Assembly (NCBI GenBank): GCA_029856435.1
Contig: JAHQXB010000063.1
Coordinates: forward strand, 7,609 to 71,608
Source: Candidatus Jordarchaeia archaeon
Lineage (GTDB): Archaea > Asgardarchaeota > Jordiarchaeia > Jordiarchaeales > Jordiarchaeaceae
Direction of reading: 5' to 3'
Length of the DNA: 64,000 bases
The notes beneath the pieces are model-generated. The model worked only from the letters and a program-made list of their open reading frames with translations, made no database searches and was not told where the DNA came from. This document shows positions 28,906 through 63,379 of the stretch, piece after piece. The translations under genes and the position numbers were made by a program. Position 1 is the first letter of the stretch. Each line of letters begins with the position of its first letter.

Positions 28906-29112
28906 TGGTGCGGAGGACGAGATGTGTTCAGGGGGTAGCAGGTACCACCGCCTTTGAACTCGTGTAGGCCTATGTGAACTCCCAGATGACTGGGGGTTTC
29001 TACGCCACAGGAGCTCTGATATGCGAGTGATTTGAACTCGAAAACCTCAGTCCTGCTCCATGCCAGTCGAGCCCTTGAGGGGCGACATTTGACCTGGCTC
29101 GGAAACCTCCGC
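28906..29112 (-). tRNA. tRNA-Leu(GAG) with four introns (D-loop, 37/38, variable arm, T-loop) and an encoded CCA
   Basis: Hand-folded cloverleaf elements:
- acceptor GCGGAGG (29112-29106) / CCTCCGC (28916-28910), then A and CCA;
- D arm TCC-GAGCCAGGTCAAA...GGA;
- anticodon stem CAGGA/TCCTG with loop CTGAGG..C (anticodon 29048-29046);
- variable arm GGC-GTAG-GCC;
- T arm ACGAG-TTCAAA..T-CTCGT.
Intervening segments: 29087-29060 (28 nt), 29044-29014 (31 nt), 28999-28970 (30 nt) and 28952-28923 (30 nt). The 88-nt mature tRNA plus 119 nt of introns gives the observed 207 nt. Confidence 0.85.
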
Positions 29113-29180
29113 ACATATACATATATTGGCAAAATAGGATTACACTAAACCAGTTTTTATAAGTTTCTATGGTAGGTAAC

Positions 29181-29287
29181 GGTGATGTAGATTAGTCCTA
29201 TTCTATCCCTCATTTCGAGGCTCTAAATTATAAAAGAAGCCCTATGAAAGCTTCCTTCGAAGGTGAAACCGAATGAATCTACACCGC
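29181..29287. mobile_element. Possible 107-bp MITE-like element or structured RNA, flanked by a 10-bp direct repeat
   Basis: Direct repeat ggtaggtaac at 29171-29180 and 29288-29297. Just inside lie imperfect inverted ends, ggtgatgtagatt (29181-29193) and aatctacaccgc (29276-29287), with 11 of 12 positions pairing. An internal palindrome ccttcgaagg is present. Confidence 0.3.
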
Positions 29288-29488
29288 GGTAGGTAACAAT
29301 ATAATGCAATATGATTATATTTTTCGTGTTTAAAAAAGGGGATAGCATACTATTAAAAAATTTTTTGGGACTCTATTTTTAAAGAGTAAGGTTCAAAAGG
29401 AAAACGTATAAAAATTATAATGCGTATCCATTTTGTGTGGTAGAACTTTGTCTGAGCCCAAAAATTTATTTAGGATATTTGGAATAGT

Positions 29489-29657
29489 GCAGGGATTTCC
29501 GAGTGGTCAATACCCAGCAGTGGTTGGCTACAGGAGCTGGGCTTAGGACCCAGTGGCGTAGTGGTGTCGGCCTGTTTTGGTGGCGCCGCGTAAGCCTTCG
29601 CGTGTTCGAAAAGAAGCATCAGATTGATGCAGCTCGATAGTCACGCTCCCTGCACCA
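29489..29657 (+). tRNA. tRNA-Leu(UAG) with three introns (D-loop, variable arm, T-loop) and an encoded CCA
   Basis: Hand-folded cloverleaf elements:
- acceptor GCAGGGA (29489-29495) / TCCCTGC (29647-29653), then A and CCA;
- intact anticodon arm CTGGG-CTTAGGA-CCCAG (anticodon 29544-29546);
- T arm GCGTG-TTCGAA[30 nt, 29611-29640]T-CACGC.
Extra sequence: ~19 nt in the D-loop (within 29511-29532) and ~32 nt in the variable arm (about 29562-29593). Confidence 0.85.
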
Positions 29658-29695
29658 ATTTTTAAAAGTAGGTATATGCCCTGTTTATTTGGACT

Positions 29696-30544
29696 GTGAG
29701 GTCTTTATTTTTTGGTTTTTGTTTGACGGTGGTTATTTTGGATAAGCGTATTGATAGGATCGATCGCAAGATTGATAAGGGTAGAATTAAAAGGAAGCGC
29801 TCAGAGGATTTGGAGACGACGCAAGCGGTTATTGATAAGAGAACCGCTATGGTTTTGTACGATTTGATTAATAGGGGTTTTTTGGATAGTATGAAGGGGG
29901 TTGTGGCTTCGGGTAAGGAGTCGAATGTTTATTGGGCGACTGCCGAGGAAAATGGGTTTACTCGGGATTTGGCGGTCAAGATTTATAGGACTTCGACTAT
30001 GGATTTTAAGAGGATTTGGGTTTACATTCAGGGGGATCCTCGCTTTACTAAGGTTAAGAGGGATACGCGTTCCATTGTTTATGCATGGGCTGAGAAGGAG
30101 TTCAAGAATCTTAGGTTGGCGGATGAGGCGGGTGTTAGAGTTCCCAAACCCGTTGTTTGGAGGGGTAACGTTCTCGTTATGGAGTTTATTGGTGAAAATG
30201 GAGTTTCTGCCCCTAGGCTGAGAGAGGCAATGGTTGAGGATCCGGAGCCCATTTTTAAAATTGTTTTTGATTATGTTGCTAAGCTTTATGAGAAGGCGGA
30301 ATTGGTGCATGCAGATCTTAGCGAGTATAATATTTTATATTGGGATGAGCCGGTAATAATTGATGTTTCTCAAGCGGTTCTTCTCAGCCACCCTTTAGCA
30401 TTAGATTTTTTGGCTCGTGATCTAAGGAATATTTTAAGATATTTTTCAAGTTTAGGAGTGGAGGTTCCCTCCTTGGAAGAAGCATATAAAAAAGTTACGG
30501 GTGAAGAATTGGTTGGAGACAAGAGAATTTATAAAAGTTCCTAA
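29696..30544 (+). CDS. rio1: RIO-type serine protein kinase Rio1
   Basis: SGKESNVYWA, AVKIYRTS, LVMEFIG, LVHADLSEYNILY and IIDVSQAV. The GTG start at 29696 gives a hydrophobic leader, so a TTG near 29738 (MDKRIDR...) may be the true start. Confidence 0.85.
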   Translation: MRSLFFGFCLTVVILDKRIDRIDRKIDKGRIKRKRSEDLETTQAVIDKRTAMVLYDLINRGFLDSMKGVVASGKESNVYWATAEENGFTRDLAVKIYRTSTMDFKRIWVYIQGDPRFTKVKRDTRSIVYAWAEKEFKNLRLADEAGVRVPKPVVWRGNVLVMEFIGENGVSAPRLREAMVEDPEPIFKIVFDYVAKLYEKAELVHADLSEYNILYWDEPVIIDVSQAVLLSHPLALDFLARDLRNILRYFSSLGVEVPSLEEAYKKVTGEELVGDKRIYKSS

Positions 30545-31094
30545 AGAGCGGGTGGCAGTCATCATAGGTTCAAATGGACAGGTTAAATCTATAATTGAAA
30601 GGGAAACCAAAACCAAGCTAGACATCAATAGTGAAGATGGCAGCATAGTTATCACTCCAACTGAGGAAACAGATGATCCTTTAGCGGTTTGGAAGGCTAG
30701 AGACATTGTGAGGGCTATTGGCAGAGGCTTCAGCCCCACCAGAGCCCTTAGACTCTTGGATGAGGGGGAACTGTTGGAAATAGTGGATCTCACACTTTTC
30801 ACCAATAAATCTAAGAATTCTCTGACCAGAATTAAGGGTCGGATTATAGGCGCCGGAGGAAAAACGAGAAAAATTATAGAGGAGATCAGTGGCGCCAATA
30901 TATCAGTTTATGGGCACACGGTGGCCATAATAGGAAATGTTGAACAGGGCAGAATGGCTAAGGAAGCAATAATGATGCTGATTAAGGGTGCCCCCCACTC
31001 CACAGTTTATAGTGTCCTCCAGAAGAGAAAAAGGTCCCAAAAGAGAAAATGGACCTCTTGGAAGACCTTGGGAGAAAATCAAATCGGAAGCTAA
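30501..31094 (+). CDS. KH-domain RNA-binding protein (archaeal Dim2/Pno1-like)
   Basis: Two KH-like GxxG regions (IIGSNGQVK, IIGAGGKTRK). It follows rio1, which is the conserved archaeal rio1-KH-aIF1A neighbourhood. Confidence 0.8.
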   Translation: MKNWLETREFIKVPKERVAVIIGSNGQVKSIIERETKTKLDINSEDGSIVITPTEETDDPLAVWKARDIVRAIGRGFSPTRALRLLDEGELLEIVDLTLFTNKSKNSLTRIKGRIIGAGGKTRKIIEEISGANISVYGHTVAIIGNVEQGRMAKEAIMMLIKGAPHSTVYSVLQKRKRSQKRKWTSWKTLGENQIGS

Positions 31095-31096
31095 AA

Positions 31097-31414
31097 TCAA
31101 ATTCCCTTCAAATAACCATTATCCTCAAGCCACTTTGCCTGCCCTTTAGAGTATCTCCAAATTATATCCGCCCTGTCATCCTGAAAGTCCCAAGGGGCAA
31201 CAATGACGACGTCCCCCTCTTTGATCCAGACACGTTTCTTCATTTTTCCTCTTATTCTGCTGAGTCTAACTTTCCCATCGGTACACTTTACTTGAAGGCG
31301 GTCGTAGCCCATCATTTTAACCACTATTCCAAGAATTTCGCCCTGTCTTGGAGTGCGAACCTTCCGGAATTCGCCTTCGTCTTCTTCTATGAGGTCTTTT
31401 TTCTTCGGTGTCAC
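31097..31414 (-). CDS. eif1a: Translation initiation factor aIF-1A
   Basis: 105-aa S1/OB-fold protein (GIVVKMMGYDRLQVKCTDGKVRLSRIRGKMKKRVWIKEGDVVIVAPWDFQ). GTG start. Confidence 0.9.
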   Translation of the reverse strand: MTPKKKDLIEEDEGEFRKVRTPRQGEILGIVVKMMGYDRLQVKCTDGKVRLSRIRGKMKKRVWIKEGDVVIVAPWDFQDDRADIIWRYSKGQAKWLEDNGYLKGI

Positions 31415-31479
31415 AATTTCAACCTTCTTTTAGTCCCTTAAGAATACGTTTCCGTTCTTTTAAAATTTCCTAAATGGCT

Positions 31480-31660
31480 GAACTTGTTAAAAAATTGTTG
31501 TTCGGTTTTTCTTGGTTTGGTGTTTCCGCAGGGTGCTTGAGTGATTCTTGCAGGTTTGCGATGGTGCTCTCCCCGCCGTCATGGGAGGTGGCACCCGCCA
31601 CAACAGAACCTTGGAAGAGTCGCAGTTCAGACCGAGAAACGAAATTATTTTTTAACAAGT
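31480..31660. mobile_element. 181-bp MITE-like element, or excised structured RNA, with perfect 14-bp terminal inverted repeats and an 11-bp flanking direct repeat
   Basis: aacttgttaaaaaa (31480-31493) is the exact reverse complement of ttttttaacaagtt (31647-31660). Both are flanked on the outside by ctaaatggctg (31469-31479 and 31661-31671). The interior is GC-rich with nested helices (ggtgc/gcacc, ctccc/gggag). Confidence 0.45.
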
Positions 31661-31709
31661 TCTAAATGGCTGTTGGGAATTGTTAGGTTTCCTAGAGGAG
31701 TACCGATTA

Positions 31710-32777: not shown

Positions 32778-32804
32778 TTACATGTTACCTCATAAAGTAT
32801 GAAT

Positions 32805-33122: not shown

Positions 33123-33147
33123 TATGGTAGGTGGCTTTGAAGCAACT

Positions 33148-33558: not shown

Positions 33559-33578
33559 TACACAACCACCTCGAGTGT

Positions 33579-37449: not shown

Positions 37450-37663
37450 CCAAAAAATTGAACCTACCAACACCTTTGCAACTGTTGTTACATGTTTAAG
37501 ATTTTACTATCTTACCTTATCTTGAGTATAATGTTGATTAGTGAAAGCATTAGAATTACTTTCTCTTCTTCTAAGCCACAAATACTCTTCTTTTAGGAAG
37601 CGCCTTTTCCCAAAAGTAGTCTTTAACACCCAGCCCAAAAGCTTGGCTTAAAGAACGCTAAAT

Positions 37664-38448
37664 TTAAAGCCACCACTGGAAAAGCAAGCACCCAGAGGTA
37701 ACAAGTATCCCCAAATTCACCCAACCCCATCGGCTTGGAGACAGGGAAATCCTCAACGTAATCTTCTCAGAATAGCTGCTTAAATTGAACTCTTCTGCAG
37801 CCCACATGGCTACTCCACGAGGCCACTCTAACAATCTCTTAACATCTTCCTCACTAGGCTCAACCATTAAAAGCATACTATTATCTAGGTAACTCTTGGA
37901 ATGGGGGTTCCCAAGGGATTCGAAGGTAGAATAGGAAATCGTAGCCGTAGATAATACGCCACGGGATTTCTACCCCCGTCCCGTAAGGAAACCATGGAAC
38001 CTATTACCACCACCCTATGGTTGTCCAGTACGGTAGATTATTAGCGACGATGTGAAAGTATGGGTCTGCTATCATTGTTCCGTTGGAGCTGCAAATTGAT
38101 ATTTTGGTCACGGTTTGGATGGTTCCGTTTATTTCCAGCTCGTACACTCTTGACTGTTGTGGTGCAGTTTTCACCATCGATTGTGACAGTGCCATTCCGC
38201 TCATACACCAATTTTCCCTGCTGTACCTTGACGTCTATGTCTTTGAACGACTCGTACACCTGCTGGGTTATGTTCTCCATTTTCAGTTCTATCTCTCGGC
38301 TTAGAAGCTGATCGAATTGTTTGAATTGTTCTAGGTACACTGGGTTCTGTTTCAGGAAGCTGAAGAAGTTGCGTTTCAAAGTTTCATTATCTGGATTGTT
38401 TTGACTCATTAACGAACCATATTCTGGAGTGTTTTTGATATTCTGCAT
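37664..38448 (-). pseudogene. Series of same-strand ORF fragments: an interrupted hypothetical gene that is either intron-containing or decayed
   Basis: The fragments are 38448-38041, 38204-38004 (+1 frame), 38000-37881 (same frame as the previous fragment, after TAATAG) and 37876-37664 (+1 frame). Removing 37854-37884 (31 nt) fuses the last two frames (...PFQELP|SEEDVKRLL...). Confidence 0.35.
37854..37884 (-). other. 31-nt stop-containing insertion (candidate mRNA intron) in a hypothetical gene
   Basis: The minus strand reads CCTAG|ATAATAGTATGCTTTTAATGGTTGAGCCTAG|TGAGG. The segment is bounded by a 5-nt repeat CCTAG. It contains TAA, TAG and TGA, and its length is 1 mod 3, which is the shift needed to join the two ORFs. 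Confidence 0.4.
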
Positions 38449-38495
38449 CTGCCATTCTCAGAATCCCTGATTTATACTGTCCTGGAATGTTTTCT

Positions 38496-38729
38496 TTAAT
38501 TCATCGACTTCTCGAGGGTGAGTGAACCATTCTCTATCCTTGCAATTGCTTCTGGGTCCAGTAAAGAATCTGCCCCCAAGTTAATCTTCTGGTTTGAAAC
38601 AAGCAGGGACATCCCAGTGTGAGGCAGTTTGGTTCTGGCAGCCTGTACACTTACTGTTGTTATGCCAATTCCTATCCCTAGTATAATTGCCGCAAAAAAC
38701 GACACAAAGAAAACTTTACTCTTGCACAT
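38496..38729 (-). CDS. Small membrane-anchored or secreted hypothetical protein
   Basis: 77-aa ORF with an N-terminal hydrophobic segment (VFFVSFFAAIILGIGIGITTV). Confidence 0.35.
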   Translation of the reverse strand: MCKSKVFFVSFFAAIILGIGIGITTVSVQAARTKLPHTGMSLLVSNQKINLGADSLLDPEAIARIENGSLTLEKSMN

Positions 38730-38985
38730 CCAAAATCCTCCAACAATTTAACTTATTATCTATAAAAAGTAGTATATACATCGGAAGTTTGGAGACACTA
38801 CACTCCTTACCAGTGAAGAGATATTGTGTTTTGAGAGATGCTCATCTTTTAAGTTTGTGAAAAAAAGAGCTATCTCAACCCCCAAAAAATAATCCTCCAG
38901 ACAATAATAGAGTGCAACCAATCTCACATAAAAAACACCAAAAAAACAACCCACACACAAACCTACAAACACACAACAACAATCA

Positions 38986-39888
38986 TCACACCCATTCCTG
39001 AAAAACAACACTGGAATAGGTATCAATAACATCTTCCATCTCAAAAATTTTCAGTAAAAATCTATTATAATGTTTAATATCCTTGACACGTACCACAGCC
39101 ATTAACCCATACTCCTCGCCTGTCCGATAAAGACTCCAAACCTCATCAAACCCACACAGATTCCTAGCCACCGAAAGATAGGCTGCGGGATCAACTCTAA
39201 TTTCTAAATAAAACTTCGCATCCAAACCAATTGCAGAAAAATCTACTTTTGCAGTATAACCGATAATTACGTCCTCACTGCGAAGTTTAGAAATTCGCCG
39301 AGAAACCACAGGTTGCGAAACACCTAACTTCTTAGCCAAATCAGTTTGGGAATAAGGCATAGAATTGGTTTGCTGCCTAAGGATACTAAGCAACTTCCAA
39401 TCAAAATCAGAAACAGGGTAATAATCGGTTTTTGAATCAGGAACAACAAAACCCGACTCCTTGAAGGTAGCCAGTATCTCCACCAAACGATACTTCTTAA
39501 ACCTAGAAACCACCATCAAACAATCAAGACCAGAAAGAAAAGAAGAAAACTCAGAAGGAGAACGAAAACGATACACCCCCAAAAGAGAATACTCACCCGA
39601 AATCCCATCCATAGACTGAATCTGGGGAATACTTAACAGACCTCTAACAATATCATACTCGTGAGGATTCGTCTTAACAAAAAGAAAAATACTACGATCA
39701 AAAAGTATCTTCAAAGGATTCAAAACTACAGTATATCCTCTCAAAACCTTCCTCTCAAATAACCGACTAATCACCTTAGCAATATGATTACGGCTCTTAC
39801 CCAGCCTCTCCGCCAAACCCTTCACACCAGCAGAAGAATCCTTCAACAAAAGATTCAAAACCGCCTCTTCTAGAGCATCTAACCGCAT
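38986..39888 (-). CDS. Tandem (duplicated) Lrp/AsnC-family transcription regulator
   Basis: There are two HTH regions (GVKGLAERLGKSRNHIAKVISRL and QTDLAKKLGVSQPVVSRRISKL), each followed by a RAM-like domain. The likely start is the ATG at 39888 (MRLDALE...). It is divergent from ahcY. Confidence 0.8.
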   Translation of the reverse strand: MRLDALEEAVLNLLLKDSSAGVKGLAERLGKSRNHIAKVISRLFERKVLRGYTVVLNPLKILFDRSIFLFVKTNPHEYDIVRGLLSIPQIQSMDGISGEYSLLGVYRFRSPSEFSSFLSGLDCLMVVSRFKKYRLVEILATFKESGFVVPDSKTDYYPVSDFDWKLLSILRQQTNSMPYSQTDLAKKLGVSQPVVSRRISKLRSEDVIIGYTAKVDFSAIGLDAKFYLEIRVDPAAYLSVARNLCGFDEVWSLYRTGEEYGLMAVVRVKDIKHYNRFLLKIFEMEDVIDTYSSVVFQEWV

Positions 39889-40003: not shown

Positions 40004-41374
40004 ATGACACAAACGCAAAAAGGAGAAAAATTTGAAGTCAAAGACCTAAAACTAGCACCAAGCGGACGAGCAACAATTGAGTGGGCAGAATCAAGAATGC
40101 CCGTGCTCATGCAAATAAGAGAGAGGTTCCGAAAAGAAAAACCGCTTAAAAACACCATAGTAGGAGCATGCCTCCATGTAACAAAAGAAACAGCAGTTCT
40201 TGCAAAAACCCTGAAAGCTGGAGGTGCAGAAGTCTACCTCTGTGCCTCAAACCCCCTATCAACACAGGACCATGTAGCCGCCGCACTGGTAGAAGAAGGA
40301 ATAAACACATTCGCCTGGAAAGGCATGGACTACGAAGGCTACTACCGAGCAATAGCCAACGTTATTAAGGGAGAACCGAACATCACACTAGACGACGGCG
40401 CCGACCTAGTATCAACCTTAATCAAACTCAAAAGAGGAGAAACCGGCGAGGAAATCAAGGTAGTTAAGAAAATTCTTGGAAGCCGAACAGACTGGGCGGA
40501 CAAAGTATGGGCCGGAGCCGAGGAGACCACAACGGGCGTAATCCGCCTTAGAGCCATGGCAAAAGATAACGTGCTACTATACCCAATTATAGCTACAAAT
40601 GATACCCCCACAAAATGGGAAACATAAACACCCCCCGTGTTTAAGCCCAAATTTGACAACCTGTGGGGAACTGGGCAAAGCACCATAGACGGCATACTGA
40701 GAGCAACAGCAGACCTTATCGCGGGCAAAATTTTTGTAGTCGCAGGGTATGGCCATTGCGGTAGAGGCGTAGCGCTAAGAGCTAAGGGGCTAGGAGCGAG
40801 AAGAGTCATCATATGCGAGATAAATCCACATCGAGCCTTAACAGCCGCCTTAGAGGGTATGGAAGTAATGCCCATGAGGGAAGCCGCAGAGGTGGGAGAC
40901 ATTTTCGTAACCGCCACAGGATGCAAGAACGTCATAAATGCAGAACATATGAAAAAGATGAAAAACGGAGCAGTGATGTGTAACACAGGTCACTTTAATG
41001 TGGAAATAAATATACCTGACTTGGAGAAAATCAGCGTTAGCAAGAGAGAGATAAGACCACTAGTCGATGAGTACACACTGGAGGATGGAAGAAAAATCTA
41101 CCTACTAGCCCAAGGCAGGCTTGTGAATCTAGCATGTGCTGAGGGACACCCAAGCGAAGTTATGGACATGAGCTTTTCTGATCAGGCTTTAGCTGTGGAG
41201 TGGATTGTTAAGAATAGGGATAAGCTGTCTGGGATGGGTAGTGTGGTTTTGGATATTCCTGAAGAGATTGATAGGACTGTTGCAGAATTGAAGTGTAAGG
41301 CTATGGGTCTTAGATTAGATGTTTTGACCCCTGAGCAGGAAGCTTATTTGTCGGGCTGGGCTGAAGGAACCTAG
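40004..41374 (+). CDS. ahcY: S-adenosyl-L-homocysteine hydrolase, interrupted by a 30-nt in-frame insertion carrying a TAA
   Basis: Track ORFs 40004-40627 and 40637-41374 are in the same frame. Together they give a full AhcY ([17 protein letters not shown], ...[36 protein letters not shown]). Confidence 0.9.
40616..40645 (+). other. 30-nt insertion with an in-frame TAA and an internal hairpin inside ahcY (candidate mRNA intron; the junction is ambiguous by 1-2 nt)
   Basis: tgggaaacataaacaccccccgtgtttaag. Removing it gives NDTPTK-PK-FDN, which is the canonical ND..TK..FDN spacing. Helices tggg/ccca, caaa/tttg and aaacat/gtgttt, with an aag bulge, are visible. Confidence 0.55.
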
Positions 41375-42055: not shown

Positions 42056-43174
42056 ATGGATACTGAGGAAAAGGTTCAGCGTGTCTTGCGTGGCTTGAGT
42101 GAGGTTATTACTGTTGAGGATTTGCGCAATTTGTTTGAGGTAGATAACCACCCTAAGGCTTACATAGGTGTTGAGCCTTCTGGATAAACCTTTTAGGCTT
42201 TCTAGGGTTCCAGAATATTTCATTTGGGCTGGGTGGTTTGGGCCTGGAAGGTTCAGGATTTGGTTCTTTGTGATGTGGATATGCATGTTCTCGAAGCGAC
42301 TTGGCATGCTAAGATTAATGACAAGTTTGGTGGAAACATGGATACCATACACACCTGTGCAAAGTATATTGAGCACTGTTTACAAGCGTTGGGTGTAGAT
42401 ATTGGTAGGGTTCGTTTTCCAAAGGCTGAGGATCTTATGGATAGTTTGGATTATTGGGCCACAGTGATAAACATTGCTAAAAACACTACGCTGGCACGTA
42501 TTAAGAGAGCTATGAGTATTATGGGCCGCAAAGTAGACGATGCTGAATCGGATTATTCAAAAACGCTTTATCCTTGCATACAAGTGGCTGACATCTTATA
42601 TGCTGGTTTTAAGCTGTGTCTGGGTGGGACTGACCAGAGAAGAGCTCACATATTGGCGAGGGAGTTGGCTCCTAAGTTCGGCTTGGATTGGAAGCCGGTA
42701 GCGATTCACACTCCTCTCCTCATAGGCTTGGAGGGATTATCGAGGATGGAGGTTGAAGGTGTGAATGAGGATGTTTTAATGGAGGCCAAGATGTCGAAAT
42801 CCAAACCTCAAACAGCAATTTTTATACATGATAAGCCAGAGGAAATCAGGAGTAAAATCTCTGCTGCCTTTTGCCCACCTAAACAGGTAGAATTCAATCC
42901 AATAATTGAAATAAATAGGCTTCTTCTTTTTTCCAGAGAAGGTTTCATTCTTCATGTGGAACGTGAGGAAAAATTTGGAGGGGATGTAGATTTTGAGAGC
43001 TTTGATGAATTGAAATCTGCCTACAGCGCCGGTAATCTCCATCCTCTGGACTTGAAACGGGCTACTGCAGAGGCACTCATTGCACTGCTGAAAAATGTTA
43101 GACAACATTTTGAAAAGAATAGTGAAGCCCGTAACCTTTTAGAAACATTAAAAAAGGCTACAGTGACCCGGTAA
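42056..43174 (+). CDS. tyrS: Tyrosyl-tRNA synthetase (archaeal type), interrupted by a 30-nt in-frame insertion carrying three stops
   Basis: A 43-codon ORF from ATG 42056 (MDTEEKVQRVL...KAYIGVEPSG) is in the same frame as track ORF 42224-43174 (KMSKS, FGGDV, LHPLDLKRATAEALI). By memory it is collinear with M. jannaschii TyrRS. Confidence 0.9.
42185..42214 (+). other. 30-nt insertion with three in-frame stops inside tyrS (candidate mRNA intron)
   Basis: taaaccttttaggctttctagggttccaga. Removing it gives EPSG-IF-HLGW. The upstream 6 nt tctgga (42179-42184) are complementary to the last 6 nt, tccaga (42209-42214). Confidence 0.6.
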
Positions 43175-43306: not shown

Positions 43307-43423
43307 AATTTATAGTAGGGATACTTCCACGCAGGATCATAAGAAAACTTTATTTTGTTCGGGTTTAACATTGTGTTCAAGAGAATGTCGTTTGTTTCTC
43401 TTTGCTAGTTTGGATGGCTGATT

Positions 43424-43849
43424 ATGTCTTGTAATAATTTATATGAAGAATTGGAACGGTTGATATCAAAGCTCAGAACGATTTCTGAAAACGGTACCCC
43501 CATTGTTGTGGAGGGCTATAAAGACGAGAGAAGCCTAAGAGAACTGGGAGTTCAAGGAATAATTCTCAAGTTATCTGGAAGAAAACTCATAGAAATCGCT
43601 GAGGAACTTGCCAATTATGAGAACTTTCTGATTCTAACCGACTTTGACCGCAAAGGACAAAATATGGCGCTGCGCCTCTTGGAGTATTTAGATTACCACA
43701 AGGCGGAGTTGACGCTGAGTTTCAGGAGAAGATTTAAAAATTTAACCTCAAAAGTCACCTGCGACATAGAAGGATTAGCATCCTCATATTTCACTCTTCA
43801 AAACAAAAACAATGAAAACATGGAATTCGAAGTTGAAAAATTCTTTTAA
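43424..43849 (+). CDS. Small Toprim-domain protein (RNase M5/primase-like)
   Basis: 141-aa ORF. It has a Toprim Glu context (PIVVEGYKDERSL) and a DxD context (LILTDFDRKGQ). Confidence 0.6.
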   Translation: MSCNNLYEELERLISKLRTISENGTPIVVEGYKDERSLRELGVQGIILKLSGRKLIEIAEELANYENFLILTDFDRKGQNMALRLLEYLDYHKAELTLSFRRRFKNLTSKVTCDIEGLASSYFTLQNKNNENMEFEVEKFF

Positions 43850-44009
43850 GAATAAGTGGGAGAAAGACATAATTATATCCGAAAATACGTTAATGTTAAA
43901 AATGGCATATTATCATGCTAAAGCTTAATTAAATAAACAGTCACTCTTACCAAAACTTCAATCATTATACACCCTTATTATCTTATTTCATTATGGAGGT
44001 GACGCTTAC

Positions 44010-45242
44010 ATGGTTAATCGAAACGAGTTTAGCACAACAAAGTACATTATAAAAGCTAAAATAGAAGTAGACGGAGTTGTTGAAAAACCAGACGTTGTAG
44101 GAGCAATATTTGGACAAACCGAGGGACTGCTGGGTTCTGAACTTGACCTGCGGGAGCTACAGAGAACTGGGCGAATAGGTAGAATAAAAGTTACAATAGA
44201 ATCGCATGGAGGCAAATCAACGGGAACAGTAATAATCCCCTCAAGCCTTGACAAAGTGGAAACTGCAATGCTAGCAGCCGCTGTGGAATCCGTTGACAGA
44301 GTAGGGCCATGTACCGCTCATGCAACCTTAGAGATAATTGAAGATGTACGAGAGGTTAAAAGAAGAAAGATTGTTCAGAGAGCAGCAGATATTATAAGAA
44401 AATGGTCCGAAGAGGTGTCGCCTGAAAGTCAACAGCTCACAGACGAGGTTTTGGATGCAGTTCGAGTAGCTGAAATCACTAAGTACGGTCCTGAAGAATT
44501 ACCAGCGGGACCAGCCATAGACAGCTCTGACGATATAATAATAGTTGAAGGGCGGGCGGATGTTCTTAATCTTTTGAGATGTGGTTATAAGAACGTTATA
44601 GCGATGGAAGGAACAAGTATACCAAAGACTATAATCGATCTTAGCAAGAAAAAAACGATCACAGCCTTTCTAGATGGGGATAGGGGAGGGGACTTGATTC
44701 TGAAGGAATTACAACAAGTAGCAGATATAGATTATGTGGCGCGAGCTCCTCAGGGAAGGGAGGTTGAAGAACTCACCCAAAAGGAAGTGGTTAAGGCCCT
44801 GAGAAACAGATTACCTGTAGAGCAATTAGAAGCAGAAGAACCCAAAAAGAAGGAGAAGGAGAAAAGAAGAGAGCAGGAAAAAGAAGAAAAAAAGGAAAGA
44901 GAGTTGGAAGAAAAAAAACCCAAAAGGATGGAAATTCCTCCCAAAATTAAGCTTCCAGAACAGATTCTGAGCTACCTGCACAACATCAAGGCTTCAAATA
45001 AGGCTGTACTTTTGGGGAAAAATTTTGAATTAATGGAAGAAATGGAGGTATCTTCGTTAGCAGAGCGTCTGAAAGAAGTGGACTCGGTTAGAGCCATCAT
45101 TTTTGACGGAATTATTACTCAGAGGTTGGTGGACCTAGCTCAGGATAAAGGGGTGGAGTATATTTTAGGGGTAAGACAAGAGAATGTTACAAAGAAACCC
45201 TTAAATTTAAAGATTGTAGAGTTCAACGAGGTAATAACTTAA
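44010..45242 (+). CDS. dnaG: Archaeal DnaG-like primase (Toprim; exosome-associated type)
   Basis: N-terminus KYIIKAKIEVDGVVEKPDVVGAIFGQTEGLLG and Toprim motifs (IIIVEGRADVLNL, FLDGDRGGDLI). A GGAGGTGA Shine-Dalgarno motif lies upstream. Confidence 0.85.
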   Translation: MVNRNEFSTTKYIIKAKIEVDGVVEKPDVVGAIFGQTEGLLGSELDLRELQRTGRIGRIKVTIESHGGKSTGTVIIPSSLDKVETAMLAAAVESVDRVGPCTAHATLEIIEDVREVKRRKIVQRAADIIRKWSEEVSPESQQLTDEVLDAVRVAEITKYGPEELPAGPAIDSSDDIIIVEGRADVLNLLRCGYKNVIAMEGTSIPKTIIDLSKKKTITAFLDGDRGGDLILKELQQVADIDYVARAPQGREVEELTQKEVVKALRNRLPVEQLEAEEPKKKEKEKRREQEKEEKKERELEEKKPKRMEIPPKIKLPEQILSYLHNIKASNKAVLLGKNFELMEEMEVSSLAERLKEVDSVRAIIFDGIITQRLVDLAQDKGVEYILGVRQENVTKKPLNLKIVEFNEVIT

Positions 45243-49181: not shown

Positions 49182-49184
49182 CTT

Positions 49185-52380: not shown

Positions 52381-53530
52381 TTAGGATACTGGACGCCAGA
52401 TAATTCCTAGTTCATCCGCTGTTTTGTATGCTTCCTCCATTTCGTGGCTAGTAACCCTTCTACATATGTCTGCATATTCCTTCCTTCTTGGCACCTCGTG
52501 TGTTGGGTGATACTGTTCCATTATGTTAACTAAAGCCTTGGGGCAATTTTTAGCCACCCATTCAAGAACCGGTTTGGTGCAACACTCAATGTGTCCCGGT
52601 AAAACTAGGTGCCTTATTATCATGCCAGATGTTCCTGGTTCCACAGTTTCATCATAGGCCATTTTATGATTTCTTGAAACAATTTCCCAGTAATTAGAAA
52701 CTTTACTCAACCTTTCTGCGCATTGATCATTCCCATATTTAAAGTCGGGGAGCCAGAAATCCATAACGTCTAATAAAAGCTTCATACATTCTTTGGAACA
52801 GTACATATTAGAATTCCATAGTTGTACAATGTTTGTTTTAGTTTCCCTTACGCCCTTTAAAATGTTGTAGGTGTTTGGAGTTGGTTCTCCACCCACATAA
52901 TTTATGTTTCTTGCACCTTCCCTCTTTAGATCTCTTGAGATTCGTGCAAGGCTCTCACCCGAAGTTTCTATACCGTTTTTTGGATTTGTGGAAATGTCAT
53001 AGTTCTGACAAAACACGCATTTAAAAGTGCAACTGGAGAAGAAGAATGCACCGTAAGAGCCTTAACTCTTAAGCGTTTGTGCCTGAAGGAACTAAAGGGG
53101 CCTCTTCTCCAGTATGTATGAATGCTGAGGATACATAAGACTCTCTGCCAAGTTTACAAAATCCTTTTTCACCCTCCAGTCTATTAGCCCCACACCGTCT
53201 TTCACAGAAATGACACTGCGATAGAATCCTTCTTGCTAGTTCCACCTTAGCATCTAAATAAGAAATCTTCGGCGAATCAATGTTTCCCAGATCCAGTTCA
53301 CCTGCATCAATCCGCCTCAAGACACTCCTAAAAACACCACTTATTCTATCATGCTCATCCCAAAGCTTGCCCAGCTCCGCATCTAGCTCAACATCTACAC
53401 CTACTTTTAAAGCTATCATAAACTTAGCATAAAGCCTATCATTGAATACCTCATAGTACCTCCAAAGCCTCTCACGAACTGTACCGTCATCCCAAACACG
53501 GTAAGCATCTGGGCGAATTAGCTTCCACAT
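52381..53530 (-). CDS. PflX-type radical SAM protein, interrupted by a 13-nt hairpin insertion just upstream of the CxxxCxxC motif
   Basis: Track ORFs 53069-53530 (…CHFCERRCGANR…HTGEEAPLVPSGTNA*) and 52381-53016 belong to one protein. My translation upstream of 53016 gives GSYGAFFFSSCTFKCVFCQNYDIS in the +1 frame. Confidence 0.8.
53062..53074 (-). other. 13-nt palindromic insertion carrying two TAA codons inside the radical SAM gene (candidate mini-intron)
   Basis: The minus strand reads ACAAAC|GCTTAAGAGTTAA|GGCTCT. The stem is CTTAA/TTAAG with loop GAG. Removing it gives ...PSGTN-GSYGAFFFSSC..., which restores the frame and the usual G-xx-GSG-x-FF spacing. The junction is ambiguous by 1 nt. 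Confidence 0.5.
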
Positions 53531-56509: not shown

Positions 56510-56512
56510 TTC

Positions 56513-59734: not shown

Positions 59735-60020
59735 GTCTTTTTCCTCCAGAGCCTAAACAATAGAGGCTGGCAACTAATTACTGGCTCAGCGTTAACCAAA
59801 CGTTTAAAACTCTTAAAAAAATTTGGGTTACCCTTACTTAAGAGCCCTCATAATTATTTTTAGTAAAATTATAAAAAAGTTACGAAGTGCATTTTTGACA
59901 TTTCCCGCAACTTAGTCGGGAGCCTTCTTGTCAACGGTTCTGCAAGAGGCATAATCGAAAAGGGTAATATTAATAAGATTTGTTTCGCAATGATATTCGG
60001 GTGTTTGTTAGAATAGAAAT

Positions 60021-60494
60021 TTATTTCAATAGTTTTCCCTGTTCATTTATTTTTCCTTCTCGAATTCTCGTACTCGAAATGCGTTGCCCATCTTGAGCTA
60101 GAACAAGGGGTGCTAGAACGATTTCTAGAGGAGGTAACCCTTTTTCCTCACGTATCATGTTAATTTTTTTAACTCCGGGCAGTGTTTCTTCGGTTGCAAC
60201 TAAAGCTTCTAAACCCGCATCCATTATAGCTGGACCGTAGGGATCATCCAAGCTTATTATTTCAGCCCTATTCAAGTAACCTTCTTCTTTGAGAAACTCC
60301 TCCAATTTTTTCTTTCTCACCGCGTAAGGTTCTATCTTGTTTGCCAGAGTCTTGTGTTGTGCCATTCTGCTTGTGGTCAGCCCAATCATTACTCGTTCAC
60401 TGACCTCGAAGGCTTTACGTATCAGAGCTTTGTGCCCAATGTGAAGTCTATCAAAAGTTCCCGAAACACCAACTAACCTAAAACGGTAGGACAT
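60021..60494 (-). CDS. Archaeal phosphopantetheine adenylyltransferase (cytidylyltransferase family)
   Basis: GTFDRLHIGHKALI (HxGH nucleotidyltransferase motif) and ISSTRIR. 157 aa. Confidence 0.8.
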   Translation of the reverse strand: MSYRFRLVGVSGTFDRLHIGHKALIRKAFEVSERVMIGLTTSRMAQHKTLANKIEPYAVRKKKLEEFLKEEGYLNRAEIISLDDPYGPAIMDAGLEALVATEETLPGVKKINMIREEKGLPPLEIVLAPLVLAQDGQRISSTRIREGKINEQGKLLK

Positions 60495-60595
60495 ATTAAT
60501 TTCTCCAAAATCACTATTATACTGGTAACAATTATATATGCATCTTCACAGAAAACTTAACGAGTTAAAACTATTGTATGGTGGGGACATAAATA

Positions 60596-61477
60596 ATGCT
60601 TGATGCTAATGTTTTGGAGTCTTATAGGACGGCCGGCGGTATAGCGGCTAAGGTTAGAGAAGAAGCAGGAAAAATCGTGAAGGAGGGGATACCACTAATA
60701 AAAGTCTGTGAGGTACTTGAGAGGAAAATAGTAAAGGAGGGTGGGAAGCCTGCTTTTCCACTAAACATTTCATTAGACGATGTGGCTGCCCATTATACCT
60801 CGCCTCCCGATGATAAAACAACTATTCCCCCCAAGGCCCTAGTTAAGGTGGATATAGGAGTTCACGTTGAAGGCTACATTGCCGATACAGCCGTTACAAT
60901 CAGTGTGGGTAAGGTGGGGATGGAACTAATCAAGGCATCAGAACTAGCCCTCGAAAACGCCTTGAAAACAATAAAACATGGAGCAAAATCTAGCAGTATA
61001 GGAGAAATTATTGAAAAAACCATAAAAGAATTTGGCTTTAAACCCATTTCCAACCTCACCGGCCACTTACTAGAAAGGTATAATCTACATGCGGGAAAAG
61101 CCATCCCAAATGTGAAGACGAGGATAGGATTTGTTCTAAAGGAGGGAGAAGTTTACGCCATGGAGCCCTTCGCCACCATAGGGGAGGGAATAGTGGAAGA
61201 CTCCAAGTACGCCTACATTTACCGCCTACCCAGCCCCAAAGCATCACCACAATTTTTATCCTATATTGCTCGAGAATTTAAAACATTGCCCTTCGCAGCT
61301 CGATGGCTAATCTACAAGTTTCCAAGAAACAAAATAGAGGAACTCATCAGAAAGTTTATATTGTCACAAACAATTCAAGCCTACCCGGTTTTAATGGAAA
61401 GGGGAAAGGGAGCGGTATCCCAAGCGGAACACACATTTATCGTTAAAAGGAATGGCTGCGAAGTAATCTCTGCTTAG
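60596..61477 (+). CDS. map: Methionine aminopeptidase, type 2 (archaeal)
   Basis: Pita-bread fold metal-ligand contexts (VKVDIGVHVEGYIADTA, GHLLERY, AMEPF, AEHTF). 293 aa. Confidence 0.9.
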   Translation: MLDANVLESYRTAGGIAAKVREEAGKIVKEGIPLIKVCEVLERKIVKEGGKPAFPLNISLDDVAAHYTSPPDDKTTIPPKALVKVDIGVHVEGYIADTAVTISVGKVGMELIKASELALENALKTIKHGAKSSSIGEIIEKTIKEFGFKPISNLTGHLLERYNLHAGKAIPNVKTRIGFVLKEGEVYAMEPFATIGEGIVEDSKYAYIYRLPSPKASPQFLSYIAREFKTLPFAARWLIYKFPRNKIEELIRKFILSQTIQAYPVLMERGKGAVSQAEHTFIVKRNGCEVISA

Positions 61478-61893
61478 TACTCCTCCTTCTCCTCTATCTT
61501 AGACATGGGCACAGAGTATATGGCACTTATGTATCTCTCAGAATTACAAGCGTTGCAAGTCCCAATTTTTTTGAAAACGTAGTCACCCCTTTGGAAATCT
61601 CTAACCTCCCTATAATCACAACCATAACATTTCAAAACTGTCACAGTCTTATACTCTACAGCTGGCTTGGAGCGGGAAAACAGTATCAAAGGATAAATTG
61701 CAATAAGAAACGCGAAAAACGCATATAACAATCTCTGATTCCTAACACCAGTAAACAAATCCCAAAAAAGATCACTCAACGAAGGATTAAAGTAGAGATA
61801 TAGTATGAACACTCCAACGGCTGCGACTCCCGCCGAGAACACGAATAAAAACAAATTGAATATTCTTCTTCTACTCTGCGACACAATGATCAC
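61474..61893 (-). CDS. Membrane protein with a C-terminal zinc-ribbon-like motif
   Basis: 139-aa ORF with two hydrophobic helices, then CYGC...CNAC. Confidence 0.4.
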   Translation of the reverse strand: MIIVSQSRRRIFNLFLFVFSAGVAAVGVFILYLYFNPSLSDLFWDLFTGVRNQRLLYAFFAFLIAIYPLILFSRSKPAVEYKTVTVLKCYGCDYREVRDFQRGDYVFKKIGTCNACNSERYISAIYSVPMSKIEEKEEY

Positions 61894-61899
61894 CCAATT

Positions 61900-63051
61900 T
61901 TAACCTATACCTATACAATTACCTATTCCAGCAACAATAACCGTGTCGCCGGGCTTGGTGCGTTCAAGAATCATGTTTTTTACCCGCTCAGCGGCTTTAT
62001 AGGCACCATCATAAATTTCCTTCTTCATAGGGGTCAAAGCTTCTTCAACAGACATTTTAATTATAACTGCATCCACAGGAACTTTATGACTCGTTACCTC
62101 CTGCTCTATCTTAAACTTGTCAACACCCGGACCGCCAATAGCAGCCCCAACACCCTCCACTACTTTACCAGTCTTCTCTCCTTCAAATTTCAACCCAGCG
62201 TCAATCATAATAACTCTAGCAATTTTCCCATTAGCCTCCTTGATAAGATTAACAATAGCATCACCCGGCTTTCCAACACGACCCCCCGGACCGATAGCCC
62301 TCACAATTAACACATTTCTATCCTCAAAAGTTATGGGAGTTAGGGAAATGTCCTCAGCAATCTCACTAGACTCGGCATTCCCATCCTTCGAAAATTCGTT
62401 TTTAAAAATAGAAGCAACGAGAGCACCAGCACCGTCCCCTATAGGCTGACCCTCATTAAAGGCCTTCAAAGCGTTATAATAAGCCTTAGCATACTTCATA
62501 ATAAATGAAAGCGCAACCTGAACACTCACAATCATAGCATAATTATTAGTCTCCTTACCCATGTAGTAGAAGTGCCTAATAACCAAAAACATCTGACGCA
62601 AAGCCATAGCAGCCTCAAAGGTCATATCAATGTTAGCCCTCTGATCACGATCCGCAGCCGGCGCCAACCTAGCAATAAGATCATCAAACCTAGACTTCCT
62701 CACATCAAGCAAATGTTCAAGCCTCTTAAAAACACCCGAAGGATCACGCTCCACAGGCTCAATTAAAACAAACTCCATATAGTCCTCCACTATGGGCGCA
62801 GGATCCTTCTCCGGCTTACCCAACTCCCTAATCATCCTAATAGTAGTCTTTTTAGCCTCCTCAGACCACTTCTCAAGCTGAGTTATAACCTCCCGAATCT
62901 GCGCCAAATACTGCATACTCTGAACCTTCAAAATTAAACCACTAAAAATCATAAAGATAAAGAAAAGGAATATCAGAATATTCATGATAAGAATGTATGG
63001 GTCAGAATAGCCAAGCGGCAACTGCAACGAGGGAAACAACATAACCATCAC
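61900..63051 (-). CDS. Conserved archaeal membrane-anchored protein (DUF1512-like)
   Basis: 383-aa ORF with an N-terminal TM helix followed by a large soluble domain. The family call is from memory of DUF1512 architecture only. Confidence 0.4.
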   Translation of the reverse strand: MMVMLFPSLQLPLGYSDPYILIMNILIFLFFIFMIFSGLILKVQSMQYLAQIREVITQLEKWSEEAKKTTIRMIRELGKPEKDPAPIVEDYMEFVLIEPVERDPSGVFKRLEHLLDVRKSRFDDLIARLAPAADRDQRANIDMTFEAAMALRQMFLVIRHFYYMGKETNNYAMIVSVQVALSFIMKYAKAYYNALKAFNEGQPIGDGAGALVASIFKNEFSKDGNAESSEIAEDISLTPITFEDRNVLIVRAIGPGGRVGKPGDAIVNLIKEANGKIARVIMIDAGLKFEGEKTGKVVEGVGAAIGGPGVDKFKIEQEVTSHKVPVDAVIIKMSVEEALTPMKKEIYDGAYKAAERVKNMILERTKPGDTVIVAGIGNCIGIG

Positions 63052-63195
63052 ACAACACTAAACCTTCACATTTGCAAAACTATTAAAACACACACATAAA
63101 AGATTTATAAGCATTGCCAGAAAACACAATCCAAAATACTCCTGAGAAAATAAAAGGCATAGAAAAGTAAAAGGCAAAGTTAAGAAAAAGTGGAT

Positions 63196-63379
63196 TGGTC
63201 CCGCAGGCCGGACTTTCAAATATAGTGTATAGTGCACTATAAACTTTGAACCAGCGACGTTGGGGCTGAGTACTATGCGCACCCAGTTATCCCGGTGTCT
63301 GAGTGCCTACTGGGGTAAGCCACACTTAACGAGTGCAGCTCTACAGCCGGGCACTCTAGCCAGTCTGAGTTACTGCGGG
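63196..63379 (-). tRNA. tRNA-Tyr(GUA) with three introns (37/38, variable loop, T-loop), a C1-G72 pair and an encoded CCA
   Basis: Hand-folded cloverleaf elements:
- acceptor CCCGCAG (63379-63373) / CTGCGGG (63206-63200), then A and CCA;
- D arm ACTC-AGACTGGCTA-GAGT;
- anticodon stem CCCGG/CCGGG with loop CTGTAGA (anticodon 63344-63342);
- variable loop AT..GTC;
- T arm GCTGG-TTCAAA..T-CCGGC.
Introns: 63339-63296 (44 nt), 63288-63259 (30 nt) and 63244-63213 (32 nt). The spliced 3' half (AUGUC GCUGG UUCAAAU CCGGC) matches M. jannaschii tRNA-Tyr as I recall it. Confidence 0.9.

Follow-up and report, generated by a model that had tools for sequence, protein, structure and literature searches.

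Introduction

Introns of the bulge-helix-bulge (BHB) type are rarely described in archaeal mRNA. The pre-mRNA intron of cbf5 in Desulfurococcales and Sulfolobales (Watanabe 2002, Yokobori 2009, PMC2738675) is a short BHB intron within a coding sequence (CDS), and it established that an mRNA can be spliced by archaeal EndA (PMC2738675). It affects one gene per genome, and no further gene had been confirmed as of 2009 (PMC2738675). Archaeal pre-mRNA splicing has been tied to the hetero-oligomeric tRNA splicing endonuclease (Yoshinari 2006), and a 2020 paper lists just one other BHB intron of an archaeal mRNA, that of cbf5. The BHB intron in the Haloferax volcanii HVO_1309 mRNA is a substrate of archaeal EndA in vivo and in vitro (PMC7714728). 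However, it is a single euryarchaeal case and lies in a 5'UTR, where it interrupts no reading frame.

Genes for tRNAs with several introns are known from Thermoproteales and from Freyarchaeia/Atabeyarchaeia (PMC11291895). In Freyarchaeia and Atabeyarchaeia, 92-95% of the tRNA genes contain introns; that report describes introns for tRNA genes only and does not mention CDS introns (PMC11291895). The EndA of Asgard archaea is reported to be an (alpha-beta)2 enzyme with a broad-specificity L1 loop (PMC5829648).

Two further systems share features with the interruptions described below. In eukaryotes, the IRE1/RtcB pathway removes a short structured CDS segment from HAC1/XBP1 mRNA independently of the spliceosome, changing the frame. 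The XBP1 segment has 26 nt, and in animals RtcB joins the exons. In phage T4 gene 60, ribosomes bypass a short untranslated gap in the ORF, which has a stop codon at its start and holds a hairpin.

Here we analysed a stretch of 64,000 nucleotides (the window) from an Asgard archaeon (Freyarchaeia/Jordarchaeia). Like cbf5, its interrupted protein genes have introns with a lineage-specific presence or absence and are mis-annotated as frameshifts or split genes. In contrast to cbf5, which is crenarchaeal and one gene per genome, at least four genes in 64 kb are interrupted, with up to three introns per gene in relatives. The introns are also uniformly ~30 nt long and lie in catalytic motifs of housekeeping enzymes. 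From sequence comparison, we consider it highly probable that tRNA and protein genes alike carry tRNA-type (BHB) introns, which would be excised by EndA and joined by an RtcB-type ligase.

tRNA genes with several introns

Three tRNA genes in the window, Leu-GAG, Leu-UAG and Tyr-GUA, contain 10 introns of 23-44 nt in total. ARAGORN and Rfam gave no match for the raw, unspliced sequence of these genes. With the introns taken out, ARAGORN called tRNA-Leu(gag), tRNA-Leu(tag) and tRNA-Tyr(gta). All three genes encode the CCA end.

The tRNA-Leu(GAG) gene (28906-29112, reverse strand; 88 nt after splicing) has introns in the D-loop (29060-29087, 28 nt), at position 37/38 (29014-29044, 31 nt), in the variable arm (28970-28999, 30 nt) and in the T-loop (28924-28953, 30 nt). 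The central BHB helix had 4/4 bp in each, apart from the variable arm intron with 3/4. For tRNA-Leu(UAG) (29489-29657, forward strand), all spliced variants tried gave the same ARAGORN call. Its introns are located in the D-loop (29510-29532, ~23 nt, or 17-23 nt given uncertain boundaries; helix 4/4 bp), the variable arm (29562-29593, 32 nt, 4/4 bp) and the T-loop (29611-29640, 30 nt, 3/4 bp). The tRNA-Tyr(GUA) gene (63196-63379, reverse strand; 78 nt after splicing) is interrupted at position 37/38 (63297-63340, 44 nt, 3/4 bp), in the variable loop (63259-63288, 30 nt, 3/4 bp) and in the T-loop (63213-63244, 32 nt, 4/4 bp).

Cutting within the bulges according to the rule given below fits the T-loop introns of tRNA-Tyr and tRNA-Leu, and yields a 7-nt T-loop, TTCAAAT. 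The number and sizes of the ten introns agreed with the initial annotation, apart from the Leu-UAG D-loop intron, given there as ~19 nt. The T-loop pairings noted there, TTCAAA/TTTGAA in Tyr and GTTCA/TGAAC in Leu-GAG, are real and correspond to the central BHB helix. These genes belong to the known multi-intron class, whose Freyarchaeia/Atabeyarchaeia members (PMC11291895) come from the same organism group as the window. As in that class, a gene holds several introns of ~30 nt, which lie at non-canonical positions and have relaxed BHB motifs.

Common architecture of the protein-gene introns

Four protein genes are interrupted by 29-31 nt: a get3/arsA-type ATPase gene, ahcY, tyrS and a radical-SAM protein gene. 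All of these segments either include a stop codon or change the reading frame, and removing them gave complete ORFs of 318, 446, 362 and 372 aa, respectively, with near full-length Pfam coverage.

The BHB geometry was set as a prior expectation and verified on the tRNA introns of the window, with cuts placed between bulge nucleotides 2 and 3. A canonical BHB core was present in 4/4 CDS interruptions: the end of exon 1 forms a 4-bp helix with the 3' end of the intron, the bulges are A-rich and 3 nt long, and the intron has a hairpin. In all four, exon 1 ends with a 4-nt helix strand plus 2 nt, the intron ends with the complementary 4 nt plus 2 nt, and the hairpin directly adjoins the 4-bp helix. 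The ~30-nt size follows from this minimal architecture of one bulge nucleotide, a ~20-nt hairpin, a 4-nt helix strand and two bulge nucleotides. RNAfold recovered helix, 3-nt bulge and hairpin for every intron copy. The CDS introns thus have the size class and helix rule of the ten tRNA introns. Different introns had no sequence in common, the longest shared word being 8 nt. A weak outer helix (h) makes the tyrS and radical-SAM introns relaxed motifs of the HBh' type, so efficient cleavage would need a broad-specificity enzyme.

Generic BHB motif scans gave no more matches than shifted controls. The motif alone is therefore no evidence. Support is provided by comparative data, together with the nucleotide-exact junctions: in all four genes, the cutting rule predicted the residues of intron-less homologues, including three codons divided between exons.

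Individual protein genes

The get3/arsA gene (9829-10814, reverse strand; exon 1 10814-10757, exon 2 10727-9829) has a 29-nt, phase 1 intron (10728-10756) with the helix GAGG/CCTC, both bulges AAA, and a 9-bp hairpin. It divides the P-loop, FGGK|GGVGKT, through an A|AA codon. Splicing extended the Pfam ArsA_ATPase profile coverage from 9-304 to 2-304 of 305. The intron was found (28-29 nt) in three relatives (L011, L012, L017), with compensatory changes between G-C, A-T and A.C at the base of the hairpin. The complete Freyarchaeia-1 genome (L013) and Jordarchaeia (L014-16) lack it and have an uninterrupted FGGKGGVGKT, and it is missing from a relative at 83% protein identity. The pairing first proposed for this gene, CATAACT/AGTTATG, did not hold, its CATAACT being 5'UTR sequence that precedes the end of the exon by ~60 nt.

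In ahcY (S-adenosylhomocysteine hydrolase, SAHH; 40004-41374, forward strand; exon 1 40004-40621, exon 2 40652-41374), the intron is 30 nt long and in phase 0 (40622-40651). Its helix is TGGG/CCCA, its bulges AAA and AAT, and its hairpin CATAAACAC/GTGTTTNNG. The spliced product matched the AdoHcyase Pfam family in one stretch, residues 10-440. The intron has 27-30 nt in four relatives (L001, L005, L008, L009), with the length varying in the hairpin loop, and a compensatory change from CAT/GTG to CGT/GCG was seen in the hairpin. The junction, TKWE|FDN, equals that of intron-less Asgard homologues. WE was present in 17/35 homologues with the TK..FDN motif, in which WD, WQ and WN occur too, and naive boundaries gave other residues. 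The initial annotation had recognised the 30-nt insertion, but the true intron lies 6 nt downstream, WE being exonic and PK intronic. Three extra ahcY introns (56, 31 and ~183 nt) occur in relatives at two additional sites; by inspection, they have the same geometry, all with 4/4 bp in the central helix and with a junction that keeps the frame.

The tyrS gene (tyrosyl-tRNA synthetase; 42056-43174, forward strand; exon 1 42056-42185, exon 2 42216-43174) has a 30-nt, phase 1 intron in the HIGH-motif region (42186-42215), with the helix CTGG/CCAG, bulges ATA and AAT, and the hairpin AACC../..GGTT. Six distinct relatives have 30 or 31 nt here, the 31-nt forms causing a frame shift, and every closely related protein in the database was annotated as N-terminally truncated (302-336 aa). 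Pairing was found in 96% of cells, against at most 61% with the partners slid. The junction GGA T|TA encodes Leu (EPSG-L-FH), as in 81/86 intron-less homologues; Ile was present in 0/86, and naive boundaries gave another residue. The 30-nt insertion was correctly noticed, but the helix is not TCTGGA/TCCAGA and the cuts fall 1 nt downstream of the boundaries first given.

The radical-SAM gene (52381-53530, reverse strand; exon 1 53530-53077, exon 2 53045-52381) has a 31-nt, phase 1 intron (53046-53076) immediately upstream of the CxxxCxxC cluster motif, with the helix GCAC/GTGC, bulges AAA and ATT, and the hairpin CGC../..GCG. A blastn comparison with an intron-less relative (L027) returned exactly 53046-53076 as the segment present only in the window. 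The insertion is 31 nt long instead of the 13 nt claimed earlier. Nine sequences have it at the identical site (27-34 nt), and ~70 others lack it. Pairing occurred in 84% of cells, versus 31-50% when slid, and six pairs were changed on both sides, a number equalled by 1/500 shuffles. Splicing joins an A|TC codon and gives PSGTIFF, the consensus of intron-less homologues (~70 loci).

Distribution among relatives

The same interruptions were recovered from NCBI, ENA, JGI and Logan assemblies in diverged sequence, with 27-34 nt, often not multiples of three. Relatives share conserved CDS introns whose structures covary, although not every relative has each intron. No protein from a spliced transcript was found in a collection of 5.8 billion proteins, in which the best full-length SAHH match had 74% identity and closer relatives were all split.

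Two further candidates of the initial annotation found no confirmation. The E2 insertion (TAAACG..GGAACGC, 6277-6248, reverse strand) evolves as coding sequence, with 5/6 variable sites at synonymous third positions, and its proposed upstream exon showed no conservation. For the hypothetical gene, the 31-nt insertion was not found.

Alternative explanations

Assembly or sequencing artefacts, or chimeric bins, have practically no probability left, even though the window probably stems from a metagenome-assembled genome. Over 15 independent contigs, drawn from four archives, carry the insertions at identical positions, with diverged sequence and compensatory changes, which already refutes this explanation. 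It is very unlikely that the genes are pseudogenes with inactive fragments, or truly split genes whose pieces are translated separately and assembled as proteins. Gene callers do give separate or truncated ORFs (ahcY 207+245 aa, tyrS 313 aa). However, the breaks lie within catalytic motifs, the first get3 piece stops after 19 aa in the middle of the P-loop, and the pieces downstream of the break have no start codon there. None of the four genes had a second copy in the window and the loci examined, and tyrS has an essential function. The tyrS and ahcY exons keep 80-96% protein identity across intron-carrying relatives, intron-less orthologues are collinear, and the interruptions have a conserved, covarying RNA structure.

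We give equally little credence to translational recoding, in which ribosomes would bypass or frameshift over the segments in an uncut RNA, in the manner of phage T4 gene 60. At 27-34 nt the segments are short, and they start near a stop (TAA right after GGA in tyrS) and hold a hairpin, but this resemblance is superficial. The junctions that match the consensus divide codons (T|TA, A|TC and A|AA), and hopping cannot make a codon whose parts are separated. Bypassing is not RNA processing and needs matching take-off and landing codons, which are missing here. The geometry is also that of tRNA introns, and tRNAs are untranslated. Somewhat less improbable, though still unlikely, is excision by another machinery, for instance a self-cleaving element or some other nuclease that recognises RNA structure. 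In its favour, some motifs are relaxed, with a weak outer helix, and neither endA nor rtcB was found in the window, as stated in the initial annotation, or in the relatives' loci (1.29 Mb together). On the other hand, bulge size, 4-bp spacing and cut position are those that define an EndA substrate and those of tRNA introns in the same genome. A length of 30 nt is below that of a group I or group II ribozyme, and the window contained no Rfam family.

Proposed mechanism and implications

It is strongly inferred that the tRNA splicing endonuclease excises these introns and that RtcB then ligates the exons. In the primary transcript, exon-1 nucleotides -6 to -3 relative to the 5' splice site pair with intron nucleotides -6 to -3 relative to the 3' splice site. 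This 4-bp helix is bordered by two 3-nt A-rich bulges, with the intron's own hairpin on the inner side. The endonuclease would cut each bulge between nucleotides 2 and 3, and an RtcB-type 3'-P/5'-OH ligase would join the exons, the intron probably being circularised. A single excision machinery for tRNA and mRNA, as suggested initially, is supported by the tRNA-intron geometry of 4/4 CDS introns, the exact junctions and the covariation. IRE1, in contrast, cuts stem-loops and not BHB motifs, and HAC1/XBP1 splicing is stress-regulated and concerns one mRNA; the introns here appear constitutive, their removal being needed for any function.

A point counted against splicing is that a cell without a nucleus would have to avoid translating unspliced mRNA. 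Translation of unspliced mRNA would yield truncated proteins; productive translation must therefore wait for splicing. Our literature search found no prior report of pervasive CDS BHB introns in Asgard archaea. In the literature searched, cbf5 is the single archaeal CDS intron of the BHB type, compared with at least four genes in 64 kb here. Splicing of these genes would restore the frame and rebuild the P-loop, the HIGH region of TyrRS, the catalytic TK..FDN motif of SAHH and the radical-SAM cluster loop.

Introns in four protein-coding genes

Four coding sequences of the window (get3/arsA, ahcY, tyrS and a radical-SAM gene) carried introns with bulge-helix-bulge (BHB) architecture. A BHB has two 3-nt bulges on opposite strands with a 4-bp central helix (H) between them. 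One strand of H, followed by 2 nt, forms the end of exon 1; the complementary 4 nt, likewise followed by 2 nt, form the end of the intron. H was fully paired (4/4 bp) in all four introns, and the first 3-nt bulge (B1) was closed by the intron hairpin (h'). RNA folding showed h' to be strong in all of them, with 6–10 bp or an interrupted helix. The outer, exon-exon helix (h) was present in get3 and ahcY, but tyrS and the radical-SAM gene had just 1–2 bp of it, and these two introns are therefore relaxed HBh' forms. In each of the four genes, predicted cleavage between bulge nucleotides 2 and 3 gave the junction of the homologue consensus; other frame-restoring junctions in tyrS and ahcY led to residues off consensus. 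Once the introns were removed, the ORFs were complete, with 318 (get3), 446 (ahcY), 362 (tyrS) and 372 aa (radical-SAM), and Pfam coverage of the spliced products was close to full length. Phase 1 was found for three of the four introns.

Scans of the whole window for BHB motifs, run under three parameter sets and filtered for restored ORFs, were discarded as evidence, since reversed or shifted controls gave equal match numbers. The motif alone can thus neither discover nor validate introns.

The tyrS frame reads from its initial M to GVEPSG and then runs into a stop codon. With the joined TyrRS as query, all 11 of the closest relatives (80–96% identity) were annotated as N-terminally truncated, and more distant homologues (≤57% identity) were of full length. 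In the public gene calls of these relatives (P0001–P0011), tyrS begins after the intron and has 302–336 aa, versus 362. An insertion of 30 or 31 nt was found at the same site in 10/10 contigs from NCBI, ENA, JGI and Logan, the 31-nt forms causing a frame shift. Invariant among them were the exon CTGG, the 3-nt bulge A(T/C)A, the AACC../..GGTT hairpin stem around a variable loop, CCAG and AAT, which together make up a BHB core. In the alignment, 96% of the cells were paired, versus at most 61% with the partners slid. The cutting rule places the tyrS intron at 42186–42215 (forward strand), with cuts at 42185|42186 and 42215|42216 that create the codon T|TA (Leu). The junction residue was Leu in 81 of 86 intron-less TyrRS; the Ile that the naive boundary would encode was absent from all 86.

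For ahcY, the insertion was common to the relatives, with lengths of 30, 30, 28, 27 and 29 nt and frames shifted accordingly. The length variation resides in the hairpin loop. No canonical BHB fitted the boundaries first assigned (TK|PKFDN). When the frame-restoring junctions were enumerated, a canonical BHB emerged once the intron was moved 6 nt downstream, to 40622–40651 on the forward strand (H = TGGG/CCCA, B1 = AAA, B2 = AAT, 9-bp hairpin). The predicted spliced sequence TKWEFDN corresponds exactly to the residues encoded by intron-less Asgard SAHH proteins, and the hairpin of one relative (locus L009) had a compensatory change from A-T to G-C. A mirror-image motif, and splicing that is nested or proceeds in two steps, were also considered for ahcY; the 6-nt shift, with which the homologues agree, made them needless.

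Relatives had up to three introns in a single ahcY gene. Three extra introns, absent from the window, were found: one of 56 nt near residue 180 (L009), one of 31 nt near residue 375 (L004/L005), and one of ~183 nt very close to the latter site (L009/L010). The regions concerned are L009 2064–2106 and 2734–2917 and L005 3293–3310 (also in L004 and L010). By inspection, all three had a helix paired at 4/4 bp and a junction that was exact and in frame. With its 183 nt, the longest could hold additional cargo. Public gene calls in the relatives' loci L001–L010 divide ahcY into two or three ORFs; like the short tyrS calls, these are errors that the introns introduce systematically into the annotation. 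In another relative (L006 1–2700, JGI Ga0315314_1000283), ahcY is reduced to its final ~66 codons. Its neighbours there are a DDE-transposase ORF and a radical-SAM/SPASM gene of no relation, an arrangement that suggests that the locus has been rearranged.

Both the start of the get3 ORF and the first half of its P-loop are missing. With a 29-nt intron at 10728–10756 on the reverse strand (H = GAGG/CCTC, 9-bp hairpin) removed, MTIADLLKERQVKFLLFGGK is directly followed by GGVGKT. The pairing CATAACT/AGTTATG, by which the insertion had initially been described, is not the BHB helix, its partner lying in the 5'UTR and not at the exon end. The intron was present in three relatives with 97–98% protein identity, with variation between G-C, A-T and A.C at the foot of the hairpin stem. 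An uninterrupted FGGKGGVGKT was found in the complete Freyarchaeia-1 genome (83% identity) and in three Jordarchaeia.

The radical-SAM gene was compared with 80 related metagenome loci. Intron-less homologues read PSGTIFF(A/T/S)(G/S)C, and according to them the insertion, initially taken to be 13 nt long and without an acceptable BHB at that size, is an intron of 31 nt at 53046–53076 on the reverse strand (H = GCAC/GTGC, B1 = AAA, B2 = ATT). Exactly this segment was specific to the window in a blastn comparison with an intron-less locus (L027), and the junction ACA A|TC encodes Ile. Nine sequences, with proteins 59–97% identical to that of the window, had the intron at the same site (L018–L022, L028, L030 and L070, compared with L023–L027 and others). 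It was missing in ~70 others, some of them at 70–74% identity. This patchy distribution points either to an old intron with repeated loss or to repeated insertion at one site. Among the orthologues, the hairpin sequence was almost wholly replaced and its pairing retained: 84% of the alignment cells were paired versus 31–50% when slid, and six pairs had changed on both sides, a number equalled by 1 of 500 shuffles.

All intron sites examined were within strongly conserved motifs. The window introns interrupt the Get3 P-loop, the SAHH catalytic TK..FDN, the TyrRS HIGH region and the radical-SAM loop preceding CxxxCxxC, and conserved motifs are also interrupted by the extra ahcY introns of the relatives. 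Introns may insert preferentially at such places, or their imprecise loss there may be lethal.

Comparison with the tRNA introns

Neither ARAGORN nor Rfam detected any tRNA in the raw window, and Rfam at a permissive threshold gave only chance matches in the tRNA region. Spliced versions were built from the three regions named in the initial annotation, Leu-GAG (28906–29112, reverse strand), Leu-UAG (29489–29657, forward strand) and Tyr-GUA (63196–63379, reverse strand). ARAGORN called them tRNA-Leu(gag), tRNA-Leu(tag) and tRNA-Tyr(gta); it still missed the precursors. The intron sizes were 28/31/30/30, ~23/32/30 and 44/30/32 nt, respectively, in line with those deduced earlier. Under the cutting rule, the central helix was paired at 4/4 bp in six of the tRNA introns and at 3/4 in four, and a 7-nt T-loop, TTCAAAT, resulted in two of the tRNAs. 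Multi-intron tRNAs are known from this part of the archaeal tree, with 92–95% of tRNA genes interrupted in Freyarchaeia and Atabeyarchaeia (PMC11291895).

The coding-sequence introns resemble the tRNA introns in architecture and size, and not in sequence. No common sequence was found among 16 introns compared, the longest shared word having 8 nt, as expected of BHB introns, which are recognised by structure and have no conserved sequence at their splice sites; similarity between introns, sought as a sign of transposition, was thus not seen.

Splicing machinery and other explanations

As proposed in the initial annotation, the simplest mechanism that the sequences suggest is one in which the tRNA splicing endonuclease would cleave the coding-sequence introns and RtcB would ligate the exons. 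Cleavage by EndA would leave 2',3'-cyclic phosphate and 5'-OH ends, and the intron would be released as a circle. Four Asgard genomes are reported to encode an (alpha-beta)2 EndA whose L1 loop makes it tolerant of relaxed motifs, and relaxed HBh' motifs are tolerated by (alpha-beta)2 and epsilon2 enzymes (PMC5829648). The weak outer helices in tyrS and the radical-SAM gene match this reported tolerance. Domain searches found no endA or rtcB in the window, as had been noted before, and a regular-expression scan of the fetched loci of relatives gave no RtcB or EndA motifs. A full-length, high-identity protein of the type expected from a spliced transcript was not found in a collection of 5.8 billion proteins.

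In ribosomal bypassing of the gene 60 type, ribosomes would pass over the insertions between identical take-off and landing codons. There are no matching codons of this kind, and the tyrS, get3 and radical-SAM junctions each assemble a codon from two partial ones; codons split in this way, at three junctions out of four, exclude bypassing. Pseudogenes are excluded because both the exon sequences and the RNA structure are conserved. Artefacts are excluded as well because the insertions recur in independent assemblies. Group I or group II self-splicing introns, with a ribozyme core of several hundred nucleotides and conserved domains, do not agree with a size of 29–31 nt and had no Rfam match in the window. 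Inteins, which are translated in frame and removed from the protein, do not agree with segments that carry stop codons and have lengths (28, 29, 31 and 34 nt) that are not multiples of three.

Further candidates

Two other insertions had been claimed initially. The one in the E2 gene is coding sequence: four orthologues had six variable sites, five of them synonymous third positions, and the supposed upstream exon had indels that are not multiples of three. At its upstream end (6248–6330, reverse strand), the E2 (UQ_con) gene (5798–6274) has a frame that begins with ACG right behind a conserved in-frame TAA. No ATG, GTG or TTG precedes the UQ_con domain, and the first in-frame ATG is ATA in the relative L012; 6 nt upstream lies a Shine-Dalgarno-like GGGGGT/GGAGGT. 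Removal of a weak candidate intron of 29–31 nt at 6304–6276 (reverse strand) would put a conserved ATG (6312) into the reading frame of three sequences, the window, L011 and L012; RNAfold did not predict it, and the complete Freyarchaeia-1 genome (L013) did not fit. The other claim, a 31-nt insertion in a hypothetical gene, could not be located in a listing of adjacent ORFs, and region 37458–38989 held no convincing BHB.

This region (~1.5 kb, from metS to an AsnC-type regulator) is missing in the otherwise collinear L001, which is ~89–93% identical to the window in the aligned flanking segments. Its ORFs are short or interrupted and had no Pfam matches, and it may be a degraded insertion.

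A search for tblastn HSP breaks and blastn indels in ~45 orthologous genes from relatives, which may miss in-frame 30-nt introns kept in all relatives, recovered known sites only.

Host and surrounding genes

The window has a G+C content of ~41%. Domain searches showed a ubiquitin system (ThiF-type E1, UQ_con E2, RING and JAB proteins), and ESCRT components (Vps28, EAP30, UEV) and a Ras/Arf-type GTPase are also encoded. The nearest relatives were contigs that carry the labels Candidatus Freyarchaeota and Jordarchaeia, among them the complete genome CP147778.1. By gene content and closest relatives, the host is an Asgard archaeon of the Freyarchaeia/Jordarchaeia group.

The eukaryote-like genes form two clusters, one at 2721–8475 (RING proteins, ThiF-type E1, E2 and JAB deubiquitinase) and one at 21029–23283 (UEV/E2-like, Vps28 and ESCRT-II-like EAP30 genes), with the GTPase gene near the latter at 18756–19304. 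Downstream of tyrS, a pair of Toprim-domain genes (43409–43846, 141 aa, and 43929–45239, ~410 aa) was kept in all relatives; because each has a separate Toprim domain, they are not one split gene.

Significance

The kind of element is already known. One archaeal coding-sequence BHB intron was found in the searchable literature, in cbf5 of Crenarchaeota (PMC2738675), and one 5'UTR case in Haloferax (PMC7714728). No report of Asgard mRNA introns was found in the literature searched, and the Freyarchaeia genome paper mentions tRNA introns only (PMC11291895). Compared with the single cbf5 intron, four of ~62 genes (about 6%) are affected here, in an Asgard host; density, host lineage and turnover between close relatives are what is new. 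Where archaea had a single well-studied coding-sequence BHB intron, there are now several within 64 kb. We see an even chance that in Freyarchaeia/Jordarchaeia such introns are routine and genome-wide in protein-coding genes, and gained and lost between close relatives. The window's density extrapolates to roughly one to two hundred introns per 3.5-Mb genome.

For annotation, this means that gene calling in the clade systematically renders essential genes as truncated or split. In the 5.8-billion-protein collection, no close TyrRS has its N-terminus. Such mis-calls distort Asgard completeness estimates, pseudogene counts and phylogenomic alignments. The cutting rule predicts junctions to the nucleotide and, together with homology, can be used in gene finders. 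The presence/absence polymorphisms make intron gain, loss and a possible insertion preference for conserved motifs testable.

The tRNA splicing machinery probably acts on a substantial set of mRNAs. If the introns are indeed routine and genome-wide, mRNA splicing by this machinery would be an obligatory expression step in a close prokaryotic relative of eukaryotes, and some means of keeping ribosomes off unspliced transcripts would be implied. Intron removal before translation, near the eukaryotic ancestor, would bear directly on the idea that transcription and translation were driven apart by invading introns.
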